This document shows positions 38,231 through 51,001 of a stretch of 64,000 bases of DNA, piece after piece. The notes below the pieces were generated by a model. That model had not been told where the DNA came from, made no database searches, and saw nothing but the letters and a program-made list of their open reading frames with translations. The position numbers were made by a program, and so were the translations under genes. The stretch comes from Escherichia coli (GTDB lineage: Bacteria > Pseudomonadota > Gammaproteobacteria > Enterobacterales > Enterobacteriaceae), in the NCBI RefSeq assembly GCF_003018115.1, contig NZ_CP027457.1, one strand, 5' to 3'. Numbering within the stretch: position 1 is the first letter of the stretch; each line of letters begins with the position of its first letter.

Positions 38231-38267
38231 ATACTCAAATCTCCCACATTGCAGGAGATTTGAGTAT
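38231..38267. promoter_or_regulatory. perfect 14-bp inverted repeat between divergent starts
   Basis: atactcaaatctcc (38231-38244) / ggagatttgagtat (38254-38267) with 9-nt loop; the right arm contains the ggag SD and the first two nt of the recombinase ATG. Confidence 0.6.
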
Positions 38268-38868
38268 GAACACGTCACCGTGGAACAAAGACCGTATCAT
38301 CGCCCAAAAAAGACCACTTCAGATATCTCATATCTGGGAGATCCGAATCCGGCTTGAACTGGAAGGTAAAACGCGCGATTTAGCTCTGTTCAATATGGCC
38401 CAGGACAGTAAGCTTCGAGGCTGTGATCTGGTCAAACTCAAAGTATCGAATGTGGCATATGGTAGCTCGGTTTCAAGCAGAGAAACGGTGTTGCAACAAA
38501 AAACCGGTAACCTTGTGCAATTCGAGATAACCAAAGGGACAAGAGAAGCTGTTGCTGCATTGATAAAGCTTGGCAATTTGCACAGTAAAGACTTCTTGTT
38601 TCGGTCTCGGGTCGGAACTAATCGGCACATATCAACCCAGCAATACAGCCGAATTTTTCATGGGTGGGTAGAAAAGCTTGGTCTCGAAGCTTCGCTGTAC
38701 AGCACACAATCCATGAGAAGAACAAAACCTTACCTAATCTACAAGAAAACCAAGAATCTCCGGATCATCCAACTTCTGTTGGGTCATAAGAAACTGGAAA
38801 GCACGATCCGTTATCTGGGCATTGAAGTCGATGATGCGTTAGAGACCTCTGAATCGATTGAAGTCTAA
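38266..38868 (+). CDS. short (200-aa) tyrosine recombinase, FimB/FimE-sized
   Basis: ATG 38266 preceded by aggag; catalytic signature ...SKLRGCDL..., ...QSMRRTKP..., LLGHKKLESTIRYLG (R...R...H...Y); no long N-terminal arm-binding domain. Confidence 0.8.
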   Translation: MNTSPWNKDRIIAQKRPLQISHIWEIRIRLELEGKTRDLALFNMAQDSKLRGCDLVKLKVSNVAYGSSVSSRETVLQQKTGNLVQFEITKGTREAVAALIKLGNLHSKDFLFRSRVGTNRHISTQQYSRIFHGWVEKLGLEASLYSTQSMRRTKPYLIYKKTKNLRIIQLLLGHKKLESTIRYLGIEVDDALETSESIEV

Positions 38869-38910: not shown

Positions 38911-39026
38911 CTAACTAAGTTCATACAACATTGATTATTGAAGATTAGGTCAGAAATAAATACTTTATTTTGATAATTTAGTTACGTTAGAACACCGCAA
39001 TGTACAACGTAAAAATGAGGAATAAT

Positions 39027-40388
39027 ATGACTCGGAGTGAAATAAACGTCTGGGATGAGAGAAGAGGTACCAATAGTCATCGAGTGGAGGAGATTCGATC
39101 TGAAGCTCAGCACGACCTTTCTCGATTGATTCACTCGTCTGCTTTCAGACGATTACAATCCAAAACACAGGTTCTTGGTCTGGGTGAAAGTGATTTCTAC
39201 CGCACACGACTGACTCATTCTATGGAAGTCGCACAAATCGGTTCAGGTCTTCTTGCTAAGTTGAAAATAAAATATAAAGGTAAAGAGCAAGAGCAATTTT
39301 TACCAGATAACGCTCTTATGCAGGCAGTATGTCTCGCACATGATATTGGACATCCTCCATTTGGTCACGGCGGTGAGGTAGCTCTTAACTACTGTATGCA
39401 GGATTACGGTGGTTTTGAAGGAAACGGTCAGACGCTTCGCATTCTCTCGAAACTAGATAAGTATACCTTAGAACACGGACTCGATCCTACACGCAGACTT
39501 CTGCTAGGCATACTGAAATATCCGGTTAAATACTCGGAGCTAGTGGTTACAAAAGACAGAATCCCGGTCACTATCGGATCACCAAACTGGCTCTTTAAGT
39601 CATCTGATTTTAAACCTCCAAAATGCTATCTAGATTCAGAATGCGATGTTGTAAAATTTGCTCTCTCACCATTTACTGAACAGGATCGGAGGCTTTTTAC
39701 TTCCGTTGAAGATGGTCAAACTAAATCCGATCATAAAAAAGCTTCTTATAAAGCTCTCGATACAACTATAATGGATCTTGCCGATGAAATTTCGTATTCG
39801 CTGCACGATTTGGAGGATGCTATTTCTCTCGGAATGGTGACACGAGAAATGTGGATGGAGCATTTCAGTGAACATGAAACCCTATTTACTAACTGCCATG
39901 GAAAAATATTTTCCGAAACATGCCAATCTGTAGCGGATAGCCTTTTTGGTGAAAGTTACAAGAGAAAAGAGTGCATCGGGATGCTGGTTCACCTGATGAT
40001 TACAAGCGTTGAGCTTATTACAAAGAATCCAGCATTCGAATGTGGCATGCTCAAATATAATGCGGTCCTTCCGGAAGCGGTCGAAGCACTACGGTTGAAA
40101 ATTTTCAAACTGGTCAAAAATAAAGTAATTAAGCATGAAAATGTACAGCAGCTTGAATTCAAGGGACAAAAGTTGATTGTTGAGCTCTTCGGTGTGTTGG
40201 CGAACGATCCGTGTCGGTTTCTACCTGCCTCAACGAGGGAAATTTACGAGCGGCAGACTAGCTTAGACAAGAAGGCTGGTATGCGAGTCATTTGCGACTA
40301 TGTTTCAGGGATGACTGATGACTATGCAACAAAGCTTTATGAGAAGATCCTTATTCCACGCAAAGGGTCTATTTTTGACCATCTCTAA
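39027..40388 (+). CDS. dGTPase-family HD-domain dNTP triphosphohydrolase
   Basis: ORF 39000..40388; ATG 39027 follows aggaa; motifs IHSSAFRRLQSKTQV, YRTRLTHSMEVAQIG, HDIGHPPFGHGGE, DLADEISYSLHDLEDA. Confidence 0.85.
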   Translation: MTRSEINVWDERRGTNSHRVEEIRSEAQHDLSRLIHSSAFRRLQSKTQVLGLGESDFYRTRLTHSMEVAQIGSGLLAKLKIKYKGKEQEQFLPDNALMQAVCLAHDIGHPPFGHGGEVALNYCMQDYGGFEGNGQTLRILSKLDKYTLEHGLDPTRRLLLGILKYPVKYSELVVTKDRIPVTIGSPNWLFKSSDFKPPKCYLDSECDVVKFALSPFTEQDRRLFTSVEDGQTKSDHKKASYKALDTTIMDLADEISYSLHDLEDAISLGMVTREMWMEHFSEHETLFTNCHGKIFSETCQSVADSLFGESYKRKECIGMLVHLMITSVELITKNPAFECGMLKYNAVLPEAVEALRLKIFKLVKNKVIKHENVQQLEFKGQKLIVELFGVLANDPCRFLPASTREIYERQTSLDKKAGMRVICDYVSGMTDDYATKLYEKILIPRKGSIFDHL

Positions 40389-41372
40389 CACGGTAAGAAT
40401 GATACTCTGAGTTCAATTGACCTATAAACATTAACCAAGGCATCTACCAGGGGGGATATCAAATCCCCCCATTCTGAATTTGTTCATGCAGAATCGGTGA
40501 ACGTTCTCATCTGAGCGTTAAACGCCAATAATCATTGATCTACACTGATCATTAATACACCTTAATACCATTAGCGTCTTACTCCGTTATGAGAACAAAC
40601 GCGAACTTCCGCTGTTCGCTCAAAGCAGACCATTCGCTCAGTTAACGCATCAGTGTCGTGCTAGAAGTAGAAGTGGTTAACAACAATGTGAGTTAATCAA
40701 CGGAGAGCAGGTCAACTCTAACCTGTATCAAAAAACAAATGTGTCATAAAGATGCCGCATGCCTTAATTTGAGTATAATTGAGACGGAAGTAGACGGTTT
40801 ATGACTAGATATTGTTGATATATAGCTATTTGAAGAGTTGTAGCGCAAGCGCATAGCCCAAACTAATAACGCTACGCCCCTTATCAAAGAGCGGCAACGA
40901 TGCACAGCTCGCACGAGACAATATTCGCACAAGAAATCAGGTTCGGAAATAACCAGCTCTGGCATGGCGGGGAGAGTATCAATGGTCAGGCTTTCGGTAA
41001 GATGCGGCGGGATGAGGTCGGCGTGGGTTACAGCAGTACAAGGTCGCCCACAGAGGGTAAGCCACAGCGTGGAATCCTCGGTTTCTATCAGGGATTCGGC
41101 GAAGCGGGCGCAGTTGTCGACCAAGACGATGAAATCCATTGTGGCATTATAAGGGAACGAACAATAGATCGAGTAAATCGCAGTCAGGGACAAGGATTGT
41201 AGTCATAGAGAAGTCTCCTGTAACGGTTTTCAGGAGGCTAATCCCGACGCCTGATTTCGCAGGCGCGGAAAGAGAGGATACTGCGACCATTAATCCGCCA
41301 CAAGTCATTTACGTACATAAATCGCGCAGTCAGATCCGACTCCCACTGTAGTTCTTGAACTTGATACCACAT

Positions 41373-41389
41373 TTAGCTAATTTAGCTAA
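41373..41389. promoter_or_regulatory. tandem palindromes TTAGCTAA-t-TTAGCTAA (putative operator)
   Basis: Two self-complementary octamers at 41373-41380 and 41382-41389, 26 nt upstream of the small HTH ORF that heads the R-M operon. Confidence 0.5.
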
Positions 41390-41414
41390 ATTATCCAGTA
41401 TACCAGTGGTTGCC

Positions 41415-41660
41415 ATGAATATGAATGAAGATGAGATTTATCGCCATATCCGGCAGGCACTTTCCAGTGCGCCGCGTAACCAGTACACCGTCGAGCTACA
41501 CCTGCAAATGATTAAATATGCCGACGAACTGGAACACATTACGGCAAAAGCCTTTTGCGAAGGCACCGGTCTGAGCCAGAGCCTCGGTACCGAATTCAGC
41601 AAAATGCGTAACTTAACCCGTCGGTTGAAGGCCGCCGGTCTGAATACCGATCTGCTGTAA
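41415..41660 (+). CDS. small putative HTH protein preceding hsdM
   Basis: ORF 41355..41660; ATG 41415 gives 81 aa MNMNEDEIYRHIRQALSS...ITAKAFCEGTGLSQSLGTEFSKMRNLTRRLKAAG (HTH-like by eye). Confidence 0.6.
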   Translation: MNMNEDEIYRHIRQALSSAPRNQYTVELHLQMIKYADELEHITAKAFCEGTGLSQSLGTEFSKMRNLTRRLKAAGLNTDLL

Positions 41661-41699
41661 CCGACTTACGGCAGATTATCGCGCAAAACGAGATATTTA

Positions 41700-44138
41700 A
41701 TGGCTATCAAAAAAACCGAACTCTATTCTTCCCTGTGGGCAAGCTGCGACGAACTGCGTGGCGGGATGGACGCCAGCCAGTACAAAGACTATGTACTGAC
41801 CCTGCTGTTTATGAAGTACGTTTCCGATAAGTATAAAGGCGATCCTTACGGGATGATCGTGATACCCAAAGGAGCCAGCTTTGACGATATGGTTGCGCTG
41901 AAAAATGACAAAGAGATCGGCGACAAAATCAACAAAATCATCCACAAGCTGGCGGAAGAGAACGGCCTGAAGGGCGTCATCGACGAAGCCGACTTTAACG
42001 ACGAAGATAAGCTCGGCAAAGGCAAGGAAATGATTGACCGCCTGAGCAAGCTTGTCGGTATCTTTGAAGGGTTAGATCTCTCCAGCAACCGGGCCGAAGG
42101 CGACGATCTGTTGGGCGATGCCTATGAATATCTGATGCGTCACTTCGCAACCGAATCCGGCAAGAGTAAAGGGCAGTTTTACACTCCGGCGGAGGTGTCA
42201 CGTATTCTGGCGAAGGTGATTGGTATTACTCCCGATACGCCGCGAGATGCAACGGTTTATGACCCAACCTGTGGCTCTGGTTCGCTGCTGTTGAAAGTGA
42301 ATGATGAAGCCCGGCGCGGACTATCGATTTTCGGCCAGGAGATGGATAACGCTACCAGTGCACTGGCGCGGATGAACATGATTCTGCATAACAATGCCAC
42401 CGCGAAAATCTGGCAGGGTAATACGCTGAGCGATCCGCAGTGGAAAGAGGCGAACGGCAAACTGAAAGCCTTCGATTTTGCCGTGGCGAACCCGCCTTTT
42501 TCCAATAAAAACTGGACCAACGGGTTGACGCCGAAAAAAGATCCGTTTGAACGCTTCGGCTGGGGCATTCCGCCGGAGAAAAACGGCGATTATGCTTTTT
42601 TGCTGCATATCATTAAAAGCCTGAAAAGTACCGGCAAAGGCGCGGTGATCCTGCCCCATGGCGTACTGTTTCGCGGTAACGCCGAGGCAAATATCCGTGA
42701 AAATCTAATCAAGCAGGGCTATATCAAAGGCGTTATTGGTTTGCCGGCCAACCTGTTTTACGGCACCGGCATCCCGGCGTGCATTATTGTGATTGATAAA
42801 GAGCACGCCCACAGCCGCAAAGGCATTTTTATGATCGACGCCAGTCGGGGCTTTATCAAAGATGGCAACAAGAACCGCCTGCGTAGCCGAGATATTCACC
42901 GCATTGTGGACGTGTTCAACCATCAGCGAACGGTGCCGGGCTACAGCCGGATGGTGCCCTCCAGCGAGATCGCCGGAAATGATTACAACCTGAATATTCC
43001 TCGCTATATCGAGAGCGGCGAGCCGGAAGATTTGCACGATCTGACCGCGCACTTACAGGGCGGTATTCCAGCACGCGATGTGGATGCTTTGCAGGATTAC
43101 TGGCGGGTATTCCCTGCCCTGCGCAACGTGCTGTTTGCTGACGACCGTTCCGGTTACTGTCGGGCGCAGGTGAACGCGCAGCAGGTGAAACCAACCATTC
43201 TGGCACATCAGGAGTTTAAGGATTTTGCCACCCGCAGCCTGCTACCGTTTAAAGCGTGGGTGAAAGAGGCAAGTCTGGAAGAGATTCGCAAAGGTGATAA
43301 ACCCAAAGCGCTGATCCACGATATCAGCGAGATGTTGCTTGTGCAGTACGCCAACAGTGAGTTGCTGAACAAGTACAGCGTGTACCAGATCCTGATGGAT
43401 TACTGGGCTGATGTCATGCAGGACGATGTGTATGTGATTATGCAGGATGGCTGGCAAGCCGCCGCGCAAATCCGCGAGCTTCAACCGGTGAAAGGCAAAG
43501 ATGGCAAAAACATCTGGAAAGAAACGCACGATTTCGAGTTTACCAAACAGCGCTACAAGGCCGATGTGCTACCCCGTTCACTAGTGGAAATTCGCTGCTT
43601 CCCGGAACTGCTGGATACGTTGAACCGCGCGCAGGAGCGCAGTGAAGAAGCCAGTCGTCAGCTAGCGGAACTCATCGAGGAGCAGGCAGGGGAAGAGGAT
43701 CTGCTGGCTGAGGCGAAGAACGATAAAGATAAGGTGACGCAAAAGCTGGTGAATGCCCGTCTGGCACAGTTGAAGAAAACCCCTGCCGACCCAGATGAGC
43801 TGGCAGTGCTGAACCGCTGTCTGGCGCTGATTAAGGCCGAGGCCAGTGCGAAAAAAGCGCTGAAAGCCGCACAGGAAGCGTTGGATCGAGCGGTATTTAA
43901 ACATTATCCCACGCTGGATGAAACAGCGATTAAAACGCTGGTAGTGCAGGATAAGTGGCTGGCAACGTTGCAGGCAGGAATCAAGGCGGAGATTGAGCGT
44001 ATTACCCAGCAACTGGCGTCGCGCGTAAAGGAGCTGGAAGAGCGTTATGCTGAACCGTTGCCAGCGCTTGAAGCCTCCGTTGAGGCGTTGAGCGAGAAAG
44101 TGGCCGGGCATTTGCGGGCGATGGGGCTGGAGTGGTGA
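41700..44138 (+). CDS. hsdM: type I R-M methyltransferase subunit (long form, 812 aa)
   Basis: AdoMet motif VYDPTCGSGSLLL and catalytic motif FAVANPPFS; about 330-aa charged, helical-looking C-terminal extension. Confidence 0.92.
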   Translation: MAIKKTELYSSLWASCDELRGGMDASQYKDYVLTLLFMKYVSDKYKGDPYGMIVIPKGASFDDMVALKNDKEIGDKINKIIHKLAEENGLKGVIDEADFNDEDKLGKGKEMIDRLSKLVGIFEGLDLSSNRAEGDDLLGDAYEYLMRHFATESGKSKGQFYTPAEVSRILAKVIGITPDTPRDATVYDPTCGSGSLLLKVNDEARRGLSIFGQEMDNATSALARMNMILHNNATAKIWQGNTLSDPQWKEANGKLKAFDFAVANPPFSNKNWTNGLTPKKDPFERFGWGIPPEKNGDYAFLLHIIKSLKSTGKGAVILPHGVLFRGNAEANIRENLIKQGYIKGVIGLPANLFYGTGIPACIIVIDKEHAHSRKGIFMIDASRGFIKDGNKNRLRSRDIHRIVDVFNHQRTVPGYSRMVPSSEIAGNDYNLNIPRYIESGEPEDLHDLTAHLQGGIPARDVDALQDYWRVFPALRNVLFADDRSGYCRAQVNAQQVKPTILAHQEFKDFATRSLLPFKAWVKEASLEEIRKGDKPKALIHDISEMLLVQYANSELLNKYSVYQILMDYWADVMQDDVYVIMQDGWQAAAQIRELQPVKGKDGKNIWKETHDFEFTKQRYKADVLPRSLVEIRCFPELLDTLNRAQERSEEASRQLAELIEEQAGEEDLLAEAKNDKDKVTQKLVNARLAQLKKTPADPDELAVLNRCLALIKAEASAKKALKAAQEALDRAVFKHYPTLDETAIKTLVVQDKWLATLQAGIKAEIERITQQLASRVKELEERYAEPLPALEASVEALSEKVAGHLRAMGLEW

Positions 44139-45445
44139 TGGTGGATTTAATGGTGAATGAGCAACGATCAGGTACGGCGGGGAAAGATGTGCCTGCGGGG
44201 TATAAGCTGACTGAGGTGGGGGTGATTCCTGAGGATTGGGTAGTAATCTCTATTGATGACTGTACAACCAAAGTTGGTAGTGGAAAAACACCAACTGGTG
44301 GAGCATCTGTTTATATTGATAGCGGACGCCCTTTTGTCCGTAGCCAAAATGTTGATTGGGGAAGATTAGATCTCGCCGATGTCGTACATATTACAGATGA
44401 AACCCATAACACATTCTCTGGTTCTGAAATTCAGCAAGATGATGTTTTACTCAACATAACGGGAGCATCTATCGGCCGATGCGCTAAAGCTGATTTTAGG
44501 GTTATAGGTGGTAATGTTAACCAACATGTTTGCATCATCAGAACAGAGGCAAAAAAACTCTCCCCATCCTTACTGGTTGAATTAATCAATTCAAATTATG
44601 GACAAAACCAGATTGATAGTTATCAAGCCGGAGGAAACAGAGAAGGACTGAATTTTTCTCAAGTTAAAAATCTTAAGTTTGCTATTACACCAAACTCCCT
44701 TGAACAAACGGAAATTGTCAGAACATTAAATGATATTAATGCATTCACTCTCGCTCTGGAAAACTTAATTGCTAAAAAACAGGCCATAAAAGCCGCTGCT
44801 ATGCAACAACTACTCACCGGTAAAACCCGTTTGCCGCAGTTTGCGTTGCGCAAAGATGGATCTGCTAAGAGATATAAAAAGAGCAAGTTGGGGGAGACTC
44901 CAGAAGATTGGGCAGTTAATAATATTGGAGATTTATTCTCCATTACCGCAGGAGGAGATTTAAGACAGTCTGAATTCTCTAATATTCAATCTGAAAAACA
45001 TCTTTACCCTATTTATTCCAATGCAATTAGTCATTATGGTTTATATGGCTATTGCCAGAGTTATGATTATGTTGGTGACTATCTAACAATCACTGCGAGG
45101 GGAGGAATCGGCCATGCCGTGGCAAGAAAAGGAAGATTCTGTGCAATTGGACGATTATTAGTTCTTAGTCCAAAAGGAGATTCAAACGTAAAATTTTATG
45201 AAGGGTATATAAACCAATACTTATCATTTGCAAATGAGAGCACTGGAGTCCCTCAACTTACAGCTCCTCAAGTTGCAAAATATCCGGTTGTTTCCCCATG
45301 CATTGAAGAACAAACCGCCATCGCCACCATCCTCTCCGATATGGACAAGGAAATTCAGACCCTGCAACAACGTCTGGACAAAACCCGTCAGCTTAAACAG
45401 GGGATGATGCAGGAGCTGTTAACCGGGAAAACACGCTTAATATAA
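44135..45445 (+). CDS. hsdS: type I R-M specificity subunit
   Basis: Start overlaps hsdM stop; two AT-rich variable TRDs separated by conserved [26 protein letters not shown] and ending [17 protein letters not shown]. Confidence 0.92.
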
Positions 45446-45456
45446 AAGGGAAACCT

Positions 45457-46107
45457 ATGACTACAGCGCCAGCCTCAATCCGCAAAAAGCCCTGATCTGG
45501 CGTATCGTCCATCGGGACAATATCCCGTGGATTCTGGACAATGGTCTGCACTGCGGCAACAGCCCGGTGCAGGCTGCTAACTGGATCAATATCGGCAACC
45601 CGGAGCTTATCGGCAAGCACGCCGGACATCCGGTACCTGTCGGGACGGGCGGGACACTGCGTGACTATGTGCCATTTTATTTTACCCCCTTCTCGCCAAT
45701 GCTGATGAACATCCACAGCGGACGTGGCGGCATTAAGCAACGCCCCAATGAAGAGATCGTTATTCTGGTCAGCAGCCTGCGGCACGTGGCAGCACACGAC
45801 GTGCCCTTCGTGTTTACCGACAGCCATGCTTACTATAACTGGACCAACTACTACACCAGTCTGGATAGTCTGGACCAGATCGACTGGCCCATTTTGCAGG
45901 CACGGGACTTTCGCCGCGATCCAGACGATCCGGCTAAATTTGAACGCTATCAGGCAGAGGCGCTAATCTGGCAACACTGCCCGATCTCGCTGCTGGATGG
46001 GATAATTTGTTACAGCGAAGAGGTCAGGTTACAATTAGAACAATGGTTGTTTCAGCGTAATCTAACAATGTCCGTTCACACACGGGCTGGATTGGTACTT
46101 CTCATGA
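45457..46107 (+). pseudogene. darT: DarT ssDNA ADP-ribosyltransferase toxin, out of frame at both ends
   Basis: ATG 45457 (frame 1) stops after 12 codons; body in frame 0 ([19 protein letters not shown]...[16 protein letters not shown]...[11 protein letters not shown]...RYQAEALIW...) aligns with recalled Thermus DarT; native-looking end ..DWYFS* (TGA 46105-46107) is back in frame 1. Confidence 0.8.
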
Positions 46108-47171
46108 TCACATATACACAAGGCAATTTACTGGACGCACCGGTGGAAGCTCTGGTGAATACGGTTAATACCGTCGGTGTCATGGGGAAAGGCATCGCGT
46201 TGATGTTTAAAGAGCGCTTCCACGAAAATATGAAAGCCTATGCCCTCGCCTGCAAACAAAAGCAGGTGATCACCGGCAAAATGTTCATTACCGAAACCGG
46301 GGAACTGATGGGACCGCGCTGGATTGTTAATTTTCCGACCAAACAGCACTGGCGCGCTGACTCCCGCATGGGGTGGATTGAAGATGGCTTACAAGACTTA
46401 CGTCGATTTTTGATTGAAGAGAACGTGCAATCCATCGCCATTCCACCGCTGGGCGCAGGCAACGGTGACTTGAACTGGCCGGACGTTCGGGCGCAGATTG
46501 AATCTGCCCTTGGCGACCTTCAGGACGTTGATATCCTGATTTACCAACCAACTGAAAAATACCAGAACGTTGCCAAAAGCACTGGCGTAAAAAAGCTCAC
46601 TCCCGCCAGAGCCGCCATCGCTGAACTGGTGCGTCGCTACTGGGTATTGGGGATGGAGTGCAGCCTACTGGAAATCCAGAAACTGGCCTGGCTGTTACAA
46701 CGCGCCCTTAAGCAGCATCAACAGGACGATATCCTCAAACTGCGGTTTGAAGCTCACTATTATGGCCCCTATGCGCCCAATCTGAACCATCTGCTTAATG
46801 CGCTGGACGGCACCTATCTTAAAGCCGAGAAACGCATCCCGGACAGCCAACCGCTGGATGTGATCTGGTTTAACGATCAGAAAAAAGAACACGTTAATGC
46901 GTATCTGAACAGCGAAGCCAGAGAGTGGCTACCGGCGCTGGAGCAGGTCAGCCAGTTAATTGACGGCTTTGAATCGCCGTTTGGTCTGGAGCTGCTGGCA
47001 ACCGTAGACTGGTTGCTGAGCCGTGGCGAATGTCAACCAACACTGGATTCCGTTAAGGAAGGGCTGCACCAGTGGCCTGCGGGCGAACACTGGGCCAGCC
47101 GTAAGTTGAGGCTGTTTGATAATAATAATCTGCAATTTGCCATTAACCGCGTAATGGAGTTCCATTGCTGA
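46104..47171 (+). CDS. darG: DarG macrodomain antitoxin
   Basis: 355 aa [39 protein letters not shown]...[12 protein letters not shown]...[14 protein letters not shown], closely parallel to recalled Thermus DarG; ATG overlaps the darT TGA (ATGA). Confidence 0.9.
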
Positions 47172-47189: not shown

Positions 47190-50100
47190 TTGAGTACCGT
47201 GGGCCAGCGCGAACGCGCCACACAGCAGCGTCTGATTCAGTTTTTTGTTGAAGATTTAGGTTACCGCCATCTGAGTCACCGCACCGGGTACACCGGGAAC
47301 AGCAACATCGACACTAATATACTGAGCGCGTGGCTAAAACGGCGCGGCGTTAATGATACGTTGATCACCCGGGCGTTGCGGCAACTGGATTCCGCCGCCG
47401 CTCTGGGCGAAGGCAAAAAACTCTATTACGCCAATAAAGAGGTCTATCGCCTGCTACGTTACGGCGTGAAAGACAAAGAAGGCGCAGGCGAGCAGAACCA
47501 AACCGTGTGGCTGATTGACTGGGCCAACCCACAAGCCAATGATTTCGCCATCGCCGATGAGGTGACGGTCAAAGGCGAGTACTGCAAGCGCCCGGATCTG
47601 GTGCTGTACGTTAACGGCATTGCGCTGGGCGTGATTGAACTTAAGCGTTCGTCAGTGCACGTCAGCGAAGGCATCCGGCAGAATCTCGATAATCAAAAGA
47701 AAACCTTTATCCGCGATTTCTTCACCACTATGCAGTTAGTGATGGCGGGCAACGATACGCAGGGCCTGCGCTACGGCACCATCGAAACCCCGGAAAAATA
47801 CTATCTGGAGTGGAAAGAAGATAATCCAGGCGACTATACACATAAACTCGACTTTCATTTAAGTCGTCTGTGTAGCAAATCCAGGCTGTTGGATATCGTC
47901 CATAATTACATTGCCTTTGATGTCGGAGTGAAAAAACTCTGCCGCCATAATCAGTTCTTCGGCGTCGAGGCGGCTAAACAACATATTGCCCGTCGTGAAG
48001 GCGGTATTATCTGGCACACACAGGGATCGGGTAAAAGCCTGACGATGGTCTGGCTGGCGAAGTGGATCCGTGAAAATGTGCCAAACTCCCGCGTGTTGAT
48101 TGTGACTGACCGCACCGAACTGGATGAACAGATCGAAAGCGTGTTTATGGGCGTGAATGAAGATATTTATCGCACCTCCAGCGGCAACGATCTTATCGCA
48201 ACGCTCAATCATCCTAACCCGTGGCTCATTTGCTCGCTGGTGCATAAATTTGGTCGTCGCAGCGAAGCTGAAGACAATGCGGCTACCGACGCCTTTATCA
48301 CCGAATTACAGCAGTCCCTGACGAAAACATTCCGCGCCAAAGGCGATCTGTTTGTTTTTGTGGACGAGTGCCACCGCACACAATCCGGCAAGCTGCATAA
48401 CGCCATGACTGCCATTCTGCCGGACGCCCTGTTTATCGGTTTTACCGGCACACCGCTGATGAAGAAAGATAAGAAGAAGTCGGTTGAGGTGTTCGGCCCT
48501 TATATCCATACCTATAAATTTGATGAAGCGGTGGCCGACGGTGTGGTGCTGGATCTGCGCTACGAGGCACGCGATATTGACCAGTATCTGACATCAGAGA
48601 AAAAGGTCGATGACTGGTTTGAAGCCAAGACTCGCGGTTTGTCGAATTTAGCCAGGACCCAGCTTAAGCAAAAGTGGGGATCAATGCAGAAGCTGCTCTC
48701 CAGCAAGTCGAGGCTGGAGCAGATCGTTAACGACATTTTGCTGGATATGGATACCCGTCCACGCCTGATGGACGGGCGCGGCAACGCCATGCTGGTATGC
48801 AGCAGTATCTATCAAGCCTGCAAGGTTTACGAGATGTTCAGCCAGACCGAGCTGGCAGGAAAAGTAGCGATTGTGACCAGCTATCGCCCCGATGCCGCCA
48901 GCATCAAAGGCGAAGAAACGGGCGAAGGGTTAACGGAGAAACTCTCTAAACACGCCACCTATCGTAAAATGTTGGCTGACTATTTTGAACAAAGTGAAGA
49001 GAAGGCCGCCGCACGCATTACCGAGTTCGAGCGGGAAGTGAAACAGCGTTTTATTGAAGAGCCGGGGCAAATGCGCCTGCTTATCGTGGTGGATAAGCTG
49101 CTGACTGGCTTTGACGCGCCGTCCGCCACCTATCTCTACATTGATAAAACCATGACCGACCATACGCTGTTTCAGGCGATTTGTCGGGTGAACCGGCTGG
49201 ACGGTGAGGATAAAGAGTATGGCTATATTATCGATTATAAAGATCTGTTCCGTTCGCTGGATAAAGCGATTACCGATTACACCACGGGCGCGTTTGATGA
49301 TTACGATCGGGACGATGTGGCCGGGTTGCTGAAAGACAGGCTGGAGCAGGCGCAACTGGATCTCGACAGCGCGCTGGAGATGGTTCGCAGCTTATGTGAA
49401 CCCGTCAAAACCCCGCGCAGCCTGCAGGACTATCAGCACTATTTTTGCGGTGAATCAGGAGAGAATCAGACTTCGTTAAACGAAAAAGAGGCGCTGCGCC
49501 TGACATTTTACCAGTGCGTCGCCCGTCTGCTACGCGCTTATGCCAGCATCGCCAATGAAATGCCGGAAGCAGGCTACACTGCCGAAGAGGTAGAGAGCAT
49601 TCGCGCCGAAGTCGCTGAATTCGAAAAACTGCGCTATGAGATTAAGCTGACCAGCGGCGATCTTCTGGATATGAAGCGCTTTGAACCCGCTATGCGTCAT
49701 TTACTGGATATGTATGTTCGCGCCGATGATAGCGAAGTGCTGATGGATTTTGAAGAGTTAAGTCTGATTGAACTGATTGTCGAGAAAGGCTTGGCGGCGA
49801 CCGTCGCCCTGCCGGATGATATCCGTAATAATCAGGATGCGATGGCGGAAACCATCGAAAACAACGTGCGCAAAACCATCGTGGATGAAAACCCGGTTAA
49901 CCCAAAATACTATGGACGCATGTCGCAGCTGCTGGATGAACTGATTACCCTTCGCCGACAAAATGCGCTCAATTATCAGCAGTATCTGGAACGTATCCGC
50001 GATTTGTGTAAACAAGTCATCCGCCCGGAGCAAACCGCCGGAGCGTGCTACCCTGCCACCATGGATACACAAGCAAAGCGCGCCTTCTATGATAACTTCG

Positions 50101-50285
50101 GCCACGACGAGGTACTGGCGACCCGCATAGATACGACGATTCGCTATACCAAAAGGGCAGAGTGGATTGGCGATCGTTTTAAAGAACGGGAAATTGCCAA
50201 CGCATTACGTGAAGAGACCGCCAGCTATAATATTGATATTGATGAGGTGATAGCGCTTGCCCGTCAGCAGAAGGAATATCACTGA
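47190..50285 (+). CDS. hsdR: type I R-M restriction/translocase subunit
   Basis: 1031 aa; nuclease PD...ELK (RPDLVLYVNGIALGVIELKRS), Walker A TQGSGKSLTM, DECH box VFVDECHRTQSG; TTG 47190 follows aaggag. Confidence 0.92.
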   Translation: MSTVGQRERATQQRLIQFFVEDLGYRHLSHRTGYTGNSNIDTNILSAWLKRRGVNDTLITRALRQLDSAAALGEGKKLYYANKEVYRLLRYGVKDKEGAGEQNQTVWLIDWANPQANDFAIADEVTVKGEYCKRPDLVLYVNGIALGVIELKRSSVHVSEGIRQNLDNQKKTFIRDFFTTMQLVMAGNDTQGLRYGTIETPEKYYLEWKEDNPGDYTHKLDFHLSRLCSKSRLLDIVHNYIAFDVGVKKLCRHNQFFGVEAAKQHIARREGGIIWHTQGSGKSLTMVWLAKWIRENVPNSRVLIVTDRTELDEQIESVFMGVNEDIYRTSSGNDLIATLNHPNPWLICSLVHKFGRRSEAEDNAATDAFITELQQSLTKTFRAKGDLFVFVDECHRTQSGKLHNAMTAILPDALFIGFTGTPLMKKDKKKSVEVFGPYIHTYKFDEAVADGVVLDLRYEARDIDQYLTSEKKVDDWFEAKTRGLSNLARTQLKQKWGSMQKLLSSKSRLEQIVNDILLDMDTRPRLMDGRGNAMLVCSSIYQACKVYEMFSQTELAGKVAIVTSYRPDAASIKGEETGEGLTEKLSKHATYRKMLADYFEQSEEKAAARITEFEREVKQRFIEEPGQMRLLIVVDKLLTGFDAPSATYLYIDKTMTDHTLFQAICRVNRLDGEDKEYGYIIDYKDLFRSLDKAITDYTTGAFDDYDRDDVAGLLKDRLEQAQLDLDSALEMVRSLCEPVKTPRSLQDYQHYFCGESGENQTSLNEKEALRLTFYQCVARLLRAYASIANEMPEAGYTAEEVESIRAEVAEFEKLRYEIKLTSGDLLDMKRFEPAMRHLLDMYVRADDSEVLMDFEELSLIELIVEKGLAATVALPDDIRNNQDAMAETIENNVRKTIVDENPVNPKYYGRMSQLLDELITLRRQNALNYQQYLERIRDLCKQVIRPEQTAGACYPATMDTQAKRAFYDNFGHDEVLATRIDTTIRYTKRAEWIGDRFKEREIANALREETASYNIDIDEVIALARQQKEYH

Positions 50286-51001
50286 TGCCAATCATGCAAA
50301 TAGGCTCGTTACACTTGCTGGTCAACCGTAAGGCGATTAAGAATCTGCATATCAGCGTGCTGCCGCCTGATGGCAAAGTCCGCGTTTCAGCGCCGGAACA
50401 TATGACGGAGACGGCGATTCGTATGGCGGTTGCTTCACGCTTTCGCTGGATCAGAAAACAGCAGCAGGATTTCGCCAGACAGCCTCGTCAATCAGAGAGG
50501 GAAATGGTCAGCGGAGAGTGCCACTATCTTTGGGGCCGAAGATATCGCCTACTTGTGATTGAGCGTCACGGGCGTCACGAAGTAAAAGTTGCGGGAAATA
50601 ATAAGCTCCAGCTTTATGTTCAACCGGGAACCCGTGATGAAAATAAGGCATTGGCGTTAAGTGAATTTTATCGACATGAACTAAAACAGCAGGTGGCTAA
50701 GCTTCTACCTGAATGGCAGGACCGAATCGGTGTTCCCCTAACATTCTGGGGCATCAAAAAGATGAAAACCTTTTGGGGCACCTGTAACACTACAACAAAA
50801 CGAATCTGGCTCAATCTGGAGCTAATTAAGAAGCCGCCGGAGTGTCTGGAGTATATTCTGGTGCATGAACTGGTTCATCTTCTGGAACGTCACCATAATG
50901 CTCGCTTCCGGTTGCATATGGATCGGTTTATTCCTGACTGGCGTGAGCGTCGGGATTTGTTAAATAATATGCCGTTAGCGTTTGAGGCATGGGAGTATTG
51001 A
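50285..51001 (+). CDS. DUF45/YgjP-like zinc metallopeptidase
   Basis: 238 aa; HELVH at 50864-50878; ATG overlaps the hsdR stop (TGATG). Confidence 0.8.
   Translation: MPIMQIGSLHLLVNRKAIKNLHISVLPPDGKVRVSAPEHMTETAIRMAVASRFRWIRKQQQDFARQPRQSEREMVSGECHYLWGRRYRLLVIERHGRHEVKVAGNNKLQLYVQPGTRDENKALALSEFYRHELKQQVAKLLPEWQDRIGVPLTFWGIKKMKTFWGTCNTTTKRIWLNLELIKKPPECLEYILVHELVHLLERHHNARFRLHMDRFIPDWRERRDLLNNMPLAFEAWEY

Follow-up and report, generated by a model that had tools for sequence, protein, structure and literature searches.

The analyzed window is a 64-kb stretch of E. coli chromosome that matches strains 1303, 2014C-4135 and three more at 100% identity. PGAP orders the genes at the locus as an anti-phage dGTPase, an HTH-like protein, hsdM, hsdS, a frameshifted darT, darG, hsdR and an M48 metallopeptidase, with these calls backed by Pfam, NCBIfam and PADLOC. 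The type I restriction-modification (R-M) subunits HsdM, HsdS and HsdR are all present at full length, and hsdM, hsdS, darG, hsdR and the M48 gene are each intact. Adjacent island genes overlap or sit no more than 39 nt apart, a packing that fits one operon, and we infer that all seven genes from the HTH-like ORF to the M48 gene lie on one transcript. The small HTH-like ORF is E. coli RptR and the tandem repeat in front of it is the RptR operator, a pair known from the seven-gene 'RRDM' island of EPEC E2348/69 (Zhang et al., Nucleic Acids Res 2025, July; PMC12255303). The features of the locus are:

41355–41360, + strand: −35 box TTGAAC of the island promoter, the same as the EPEC −35 box and conserved in an alignment of four E. 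coli loci
41372–41380, + strand: operator repeat DR1, TTTAGCTAA, core palindrome TAGCTA at 41374–41379, identical to the published RptR-binding repeat
41375–41383, + strand: −10 box AGCTAATTT, 14 bp past the −35 box and spanning the DR1/DR2 junction, with the sequence and spacing of the functional EPEC 5′ −10 box
41381–41389, + strand: operator repeat DR2, TTTAGCTAA, core palindrome TAGCTA at 41383–41388, identical to the published RptR-binding repeat
41390–41398, + strand: candidate site, a degenerate third in-phase repeat ATTATCCAG with hexamer TATCCA, one mismatch from the accepted TATCTA
41421–41660, + strand: rptR, 79 aa (9R2Z identity, Pfam PF24718, PGAP); an in-frame start at 41415 gives 81 aa
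41700–44138, + strand: hsdM, long-form type I methyltransferase, 812 aa (Pfam N6_Mtase and HsdM_N; TIGR00497; PADLOC MTase_I full length; PGAP)
44138–45445, + strand: hsdS specificity subunit, about 435 aa (Pfam Methylase_S; PADLOC Specificity_I; PGAP)
45492–46107, + strand: darT pseudogene (PGAP 'frameshifted'; DarT homology confirmed)
46104–47171, + strand: darG antitoxin, macrodomain glycohydrolase, intact (NCBIfam antitoxin_DarG E=2e-132; PADLOC DarG; PGAP)
47190–50285, + strand: hsdR restriction subunit, 1031 aa (Pfam HSDR_N, SWI2_SNF2, T1R_D3-like; PADLOC REase_I; PGAP)
50285–51001, + strand: YgjP-like/M48 metallopeptidase, last island gene (Pfam YgjP-like E=1.4e-61; PGAP 'M48 family metallopeptidase')

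The small protein, named 'HTH-like domain-containing protein' (79 aa) by PGAP, matches the structurally solved EPEC E2348/69 RptR over its full length (PDB 9R2Z chain A; WP_000343040.1), with 77 of 79 residues identical (97%; E=1.3e-47) and the substitutions N2D and E36K relative to EPEC in 79-aa numbering. Pfam assigns it to HTH_73 (PF24718; E=2.6e-29, positions 1–70 of 71, 101 bits against a cut-off of 27), and neither NCBIfam nor PADLOC has a model for RptR. An initial annotation made from the sequence alone had read the protein as HTH-like and proposed a remote homology search. All published contact and dimer residues are retained (V24, E25, T57, E58, S60, K61, L65, R68, L69, A72 and L74), including the DNA-contact stretch T57–K61 of helix α4 and the dimer residues E25, L69, A72 and L74, and in an alignment of 24 homologues these positions vary little or not at all, E58 and K61 being fully conserved. 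The proper annotation of the locus is rptR and its operator, in place of 'HTH-like hypothetical'.

The ORF was originally drawn as 81 aa beginning 26 nt past the repeats. An ATG at 41415 indeed sits 26 nt past the last repeat base, and the ORF stop ends at 41660, but the family-typical start is the second ATG at 41421, the PGAP choice, which gives the 79-aa length of nearly all homologues. The start at 41421 is favored because homologues in other genera begin MNE/MTE at the second-ATG position, and the 81-aa form keeps some plausibility since that position reads ATA in E. coli strain 219, where translation must begin at the first ATG or a non-canonical start. Several Enterobacterales carry a tandem duplication at the 5′ end of rptR, seen as ATGAAT ATGAAT in E. 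coli (window 41415–41426), as ATGAATGAAAAC ATGAACGAAAAC in Pectobacterium and, with a diverged copy, as TTAACGAAAAC ATGAACGAAAAC in Dickeya (loci L009 and L010); in E. coli and Pectobacterium the duplication offers a choice of in-frame starts, and Photorhabdus loci begin one codon upstream (ATG ATA AAC). The hsdM start at 41700 follows the rptR stop by 39 nt, the interval given at the outset, and places rptR directly ahead of a type I defense module.

The repeats upstream of rptR had been described as two self-complementary octamers with 9-bp periodicity at 41373–41389, and the sequence is as described, with TTAGCTAA at 41373–41380 and 41382–41389 and a single T between the copies. A perfect tandem 9-mer, two copies of TTTAGCTAA at 41372–41389, is the more exact description. 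The window promoter reads TTGAAC TTGATACCACATTT AGCTAATTT AGCTAA ATTATCC, so that two TAGCTA hexamers in 9-bp phase overlap the −10 box upstream of rptR. With both strands read, TTTAGCTAA occurs 4 times in the 64 kb against 0.54 expected, three of the 4 occurrences being the operator array, and bare TAGCTA is not enriched across the same window (6 found, 7.5 expected). Nowhere else in the 64-kb window do two RptR-type hexamers lie in phase at 9, 18 or 27 bp; within the island, including the stretches ahead of darT and hsdR, variant hexamers occur only singly. A cluster at 40806–40828 (TAGATA, TATATA, TAGCTA) was considered as an operator and rejected as chance because its hexamers are out of 9-bp phase.

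The promoter assignment relies on the mapped EPEC promoter, which consists of TTGAAC, 14 bp and AGCTAATTT; it carries two identical −10 boxes of which only the 5′ one is needed, and scrambling the −35 box attenuates it (PMC12255303). A generic sigma-70 consensus scan of 40300–42000 returned no + strand promoter at the repeats, because the −10 box is weak (TAATTT) and the scan filter too strict for it; we therefore assigned the promoter by identity with the experimentally mapped one. The E2348/69-derived locus in our set (L002) bears exactly the accession numbers of the published study, and its alignment with the window reveals an identical −35 box, spacer and repeats except for one unit fewer in the window. 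Loss of one unit from a perfect tandem array keeps TTGAAC-14 bp-AGCTAATTT and therefore retains the functional 5′ −10 box together with two operator sites. By this identity, the −10 box AGCTAATTT is predicted to function in the window strain, with a predicted transcription start at about 41390.

The EPEC work supplies the biochemistry of the system. The EPEC island has a single promoter ahead of rptR-hsdM-hsdS-darTG-hsdR-M48, and rptR, its first gene, encodes a 79-aa dimeric repressor whose crystal structure (9R2Z) has no close PDB homologue (PMC12255303). The EPEC operator comprises three 9-bp direct repeats, TTTAGCTAA, overlapping the −10 box, the RptR-binding repeat being defined by EMSA and mutagenesis, with a minimal palindrome TAGCTA in which G5/T5 and C6/A6 are tolerated (PMC12255303). 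Binding is cooperative (Hill coefficient 3.4, KD about 185 nM), two adjacent repeats suffice for full repression of a GFP reporter in vivo, and the S60G DNA-binding mutant binds and represses poorly (PMC12255303). Over-production of RptR abolishes phage defense, and phage infection raises hsdM mRNA more than 15-fold (PMC12255303). The proposal of a small protein that binds these palindromes and governs the type I R-M operon is thus borne out by EMSA, reporters, mutant, structure and the over-production phenotype for a 97%-identical orthologue with the same repeats.

Window and EPEC islands agree in the TTTAGCTAA repeats, −35 box, 14-bp spacer and −10 box, and match gene for gene in the order rptR-hsdM-hsdS-darT-darG-hsdR-M48. 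They differ in operator copy number (two repeats in the window, three in EPEC), in the hsdS specificity allele, in the inactivation of darT in the window, and in the upstream flank, which holds an anti-phage dGTPase in the window and IS elements in EPEC. RptR orthology and the identity of operator and promoter can be read directly from the two loci; structure, binding, repression and the loss of defense on over-expression would be expected to carry over from the EPEC orthologue to the window strain. RptR would act as a 9-kDa four-helix protein forming a homodimer, with one dimer per TAGCTA palindrome and the α4 helices entering a single major groove from both sides, and dimers would occupy adjacent 9-bp repeats cooperatively. 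Because the −10 box of the sole mapped promoter lies within the repeats, bound RptR would silence its own gene and the tightly packed genes downstream, a negative autoregulation blocking rptR and the rest of the island that phage infection would relieve. Very probably, then, the window carries an RptR-controlled 'RRDM' defense island with a two-repeat operator and negative autoregulation, on the strength of experiments with the 97%-identical EPEC orthologue.

Operator and regulator are conserved together far beyond E. coli. A protein search recovered 688 RptR homologues, nearly all 79 aa long and all with PF24718, and scanning one genome per species yielded 80 rptR loci, from Gammaproteobacteria and a small number of other groups. 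We scored an operator where at least two TA[GT][CA]TA hexamers in strict 9-bp phase lie within 90 bp upstream of rptR, and 77 of the 80 species have one, with runs of 2, 3 and 4 sites at 24, 51 and 2 loci, respectively; the remaining 846 kb of the same loci contain 6 in-phase pairs. We regard this comparative conservation as the decisive evidence that the repeats are a real feature.

Co-occurrence with long-form hsdM, raised initially as a check, holds directly downstream of rptR at 38 of the 80 loci; a further 6 have an adjacent hsdM of another family (44 in total), and 7 additional loci carry an hsdM-like gene further along. Among ten sampled loci without an adjacent hsdM match, an EcoEI-type hsdR comes first at three and a divergent hsdM at one, and the remaining first genes encode OLD-like AAA_15/TOPRIM, SMC-like ATPase (885–890 aa), Schlafen/AlbA_2, SNF2 helicase with NOV_C, and DEAD-box helicase proteins. 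Loci L011, L019, L025, L031, L041 and L049 have non-R-M genes, including SMC/AAA_23-like ATPases, behind an rptR homologue with an in-phase operator. These non-R-M genes are candidate defense modules under RptR control. This neighborhood survey replicates and slightly widens the published analysis (PMC12255303).

Within E. coli, the window operator is the normal allele. About 247 complete genomes carry the promoter, about 238 of them with the two-repeat length, and about 240 E. coli genomes combine exactly two repeats with an intact rptR; among complete genomes, the three-repeat operator is confined to four assemblies of E2348/69 or its derivatives. With two repeats in nearly all genomes, it is E2348/69 that is the exception. 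Comparison of window positions 41372–41398 with L002 and L003 reveals a further polymorphism in the third in-phase hexamer, which is TATCCA in the window and EPEC and TATCTA in the E. coli strain 219 type, Xenorhabdus and Edwardsiella. The repression set-point may differ because the window has two perfect repeats instead of three and its third hexamer is degenerate (TATCCA).

RptR itself is also polymorphic. E. coli O157:H7 NE 1169-1 (L004:11086–11322) has an in-frame 69-bp rptR deletion, corresponding to window 41566–41634 and lying between CCGGTCTGA direct repeats, that removes the recognition helix α4; no fewer than 10 complete genomes carry the deletion, most of them under an O157 or O157:H7 label, and it may be present in as many as 36 records. 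Operator, hsdMSR, darTG and M48 are still intact in these strains, which are natural rptR-null strains tolerating the island. Repression is thus not strictly essential for carrying the island, because the O157:H7 clade keeps it without the RptR recognition helix. We tentatively suggest that the E. coli alleles (two perfect repeats; two with an in-phase TATCTA; three; helix-less RptR) form a series that may set basal island expression, and that the RptR-operator cassette is a portable regulator at the head of many unrelated defense modules and a possible marker for new ones, although we hold the combined proposal to be less probable than not.

The system is already known from the 2025 publication, and the window contributes only an allele of it, the common two-repeat operator with a dead darT. 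Beyond that report (PMC12255303), small additions come from the allele frequencies, the inactive darT, the rptR deletion found in nature and the cargo genes outside R-M. Two lesions account for the darT pseudogene. A 7-bp deletion, in which one copy of CCTATGG/CCTATGA is gone, has cost the gene its start codon, and close to the 3′ end, at about 46095, one additional T causes a +1 frameshift that joins the DarT frame to darG. The outcome of these changes in the darT region (45457–46107) is a fused DarT(ΔN)–DarG ORF of 534 aa that opens from a GTG at 45567. The DarTG pair is accordingly incomplete, with darG intact and darT inactivated. The initial suggestion that the regulator would also gate the nested darTG agrees with published RptR control of the darTG-containing EPEC island, but does not apply to the window, where the darT pseudogene leaves no intact toxin to gate.

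The last island gene invites speculation that its M48 peptidase removes RptR on infection. The data argue against this as a general mechanism: tblastn with the window M48 protein found no homologue within 6 kb on either side of rptR at any of the 80 loci, non-R-M loci included. At R-M loci this absence is only weak evidence because the 6-kb flank is too short for the expected M48 position. As an obligate partner of RptR, the M48 peptidase was rejected on the same lack of matches near all 80 rptR loci.

Upstream of the island lie an anti-phage dGTPase gene (39000–40388; PADLOC dGTPase E=9e-145) and a short tyrosine recombinase gene (38266–38868), and their position directly upstream suggests that the RptR island sits inside a larger defense or mobile island. 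Further neighbors are typical of CP4-type islands, including a Cah autotransporter and DUF932, DUF905 and IrmA genes. The stretch of almost 1 kb that separates the dGTPase gene from the rptR promoter (40389–41354) is without an annotated gene in the record of identical strain 1303 and holds unsupported ORFs, including one of 149 aa on the minus strand with no Pfam match; most of this interval, from about 40590, is found upstream of rptR in other E. coli at 92–94% identity. An Rfam scan of 40300–41800 gave only matches below threshold, upstream of the promoter at 41205–41279 on the minus strand: isrK scored 39.2 bits where 50 is required, and the a1/b1 target of C4 antisense RNA scored 38.2 bits where 46.7 is required. 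A piece of roughly 72 bp (41213–41286) recurs in roughly 830 E. coli genomes without rptR, sometimes annotated 'ash family protein', and is probably what is left of the regulatory region of a P4-like island.

Other explanations of the small ORF and its repeats fare poorly against these observations. The initial annotation asked whether control might be C-protein-like, and a genuine type II R-M C protein, an Xre-type HTH factor that activates and then represses from C-boxes and delays restriction in a new host, would likewise be small, bind DNA and stand at the head of an R-M operon whose operator is a repeated palindrome; the RptR authors themselves call their protein 'akin to' C proteins (PMC12255303). 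However, a Pfam scan of the window protein at E≤0.01 returns only HTH_73, with no HTH_3 or Xre-type match and with NCBIfam and PADLOC empty, and the published structure is without close PDB homologue and binds DNA in a different geometry (PMC12255303). The operator consists of two 6-bp palindromes in 9-bp phase and not of C-boxes, rptR precedes hsdM with hsdR 5.5 kb downstream, and repression alone has been observed for RptR (PMC12255303). Because M and R lie in one transcription unit, there is also no delay of R relative to M. On domain, operator type and gene position we reject membership in the C-protein family, a reading to which we give very little credence; what survives of the comparison is functional analogy only.

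An equally improbable view holds that the tandem 9-mer is a slippage duplicate of the −10 region with no operator role in the window strain, two copies being too few and the island constitutive. Copy number does vary, from 2 in the window to 3 in EPEC, and the junction between the repeats supplies the −10 box, but constructs with two intact repeats are repressed like wild type (PMC12255303), two-site arrays recur at 24 of the 80 loci from other species, and the roughly 240 E. coli genomes counted above pair exactly two repeats with an intact rptR. Nesting of darTG in the same gene string could instead make the small protein a DarTG accessory, a toxin-antitoxin (TA)-type autoregulator rather than an R-M regulator. 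We consider this the least credible of the alternatives, as most hsdM-bearing rptR loci have no DarT or DarG match in the 6 kb downstream, rptR also heads operons without TA genes, and the window retains rptR and operator intact while its darT is a pseudogene. RptR control of the R-M island through its two-repeat operator is the reading we retain.

Type I R-M systems were long held to lack transcriptional control, and their regulation was ascribed to post-translational ClpXP restriction alleviation. RptR changed that view, which makes the early hunch of a regulator heading this operon a good one. The accompanying remark that such control is not known as a standard feature of type I systems had been superseded by the publication of RptR in July 2025 (PMC12255303).

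Comparison with other defense regulators places RptR among known strategies without kinship to them. C proteins are Xre/lambda-cI-like five-helix HTH proteins. C.PvuII, C.AhdI, C.Esp1396I and C.Csp231I share with RptR the role of a small dimeric autoregulator at the head of an R-M unit and the cooperative occupation of repeated palindromic sites overlapping the promoter, but have no sequence or fold relationship to it. C-boxes are longer inverted repeats, whereas RptR sites are 6-bp palindromes, and C proteins activate and then repress from upstream of the R gene, whereas RptR lies ahead of hsdM and is known only as a repressor. Unlike the WYL-domain repressors BrxR/CapW and CapH–CapP of CBASS, RptR is a single domain of 79 aa with no sensor domain and no cognate protease or ligand known, yet in each of these systems a repressor heads a phage-defense operon that is de-repressed on infection.
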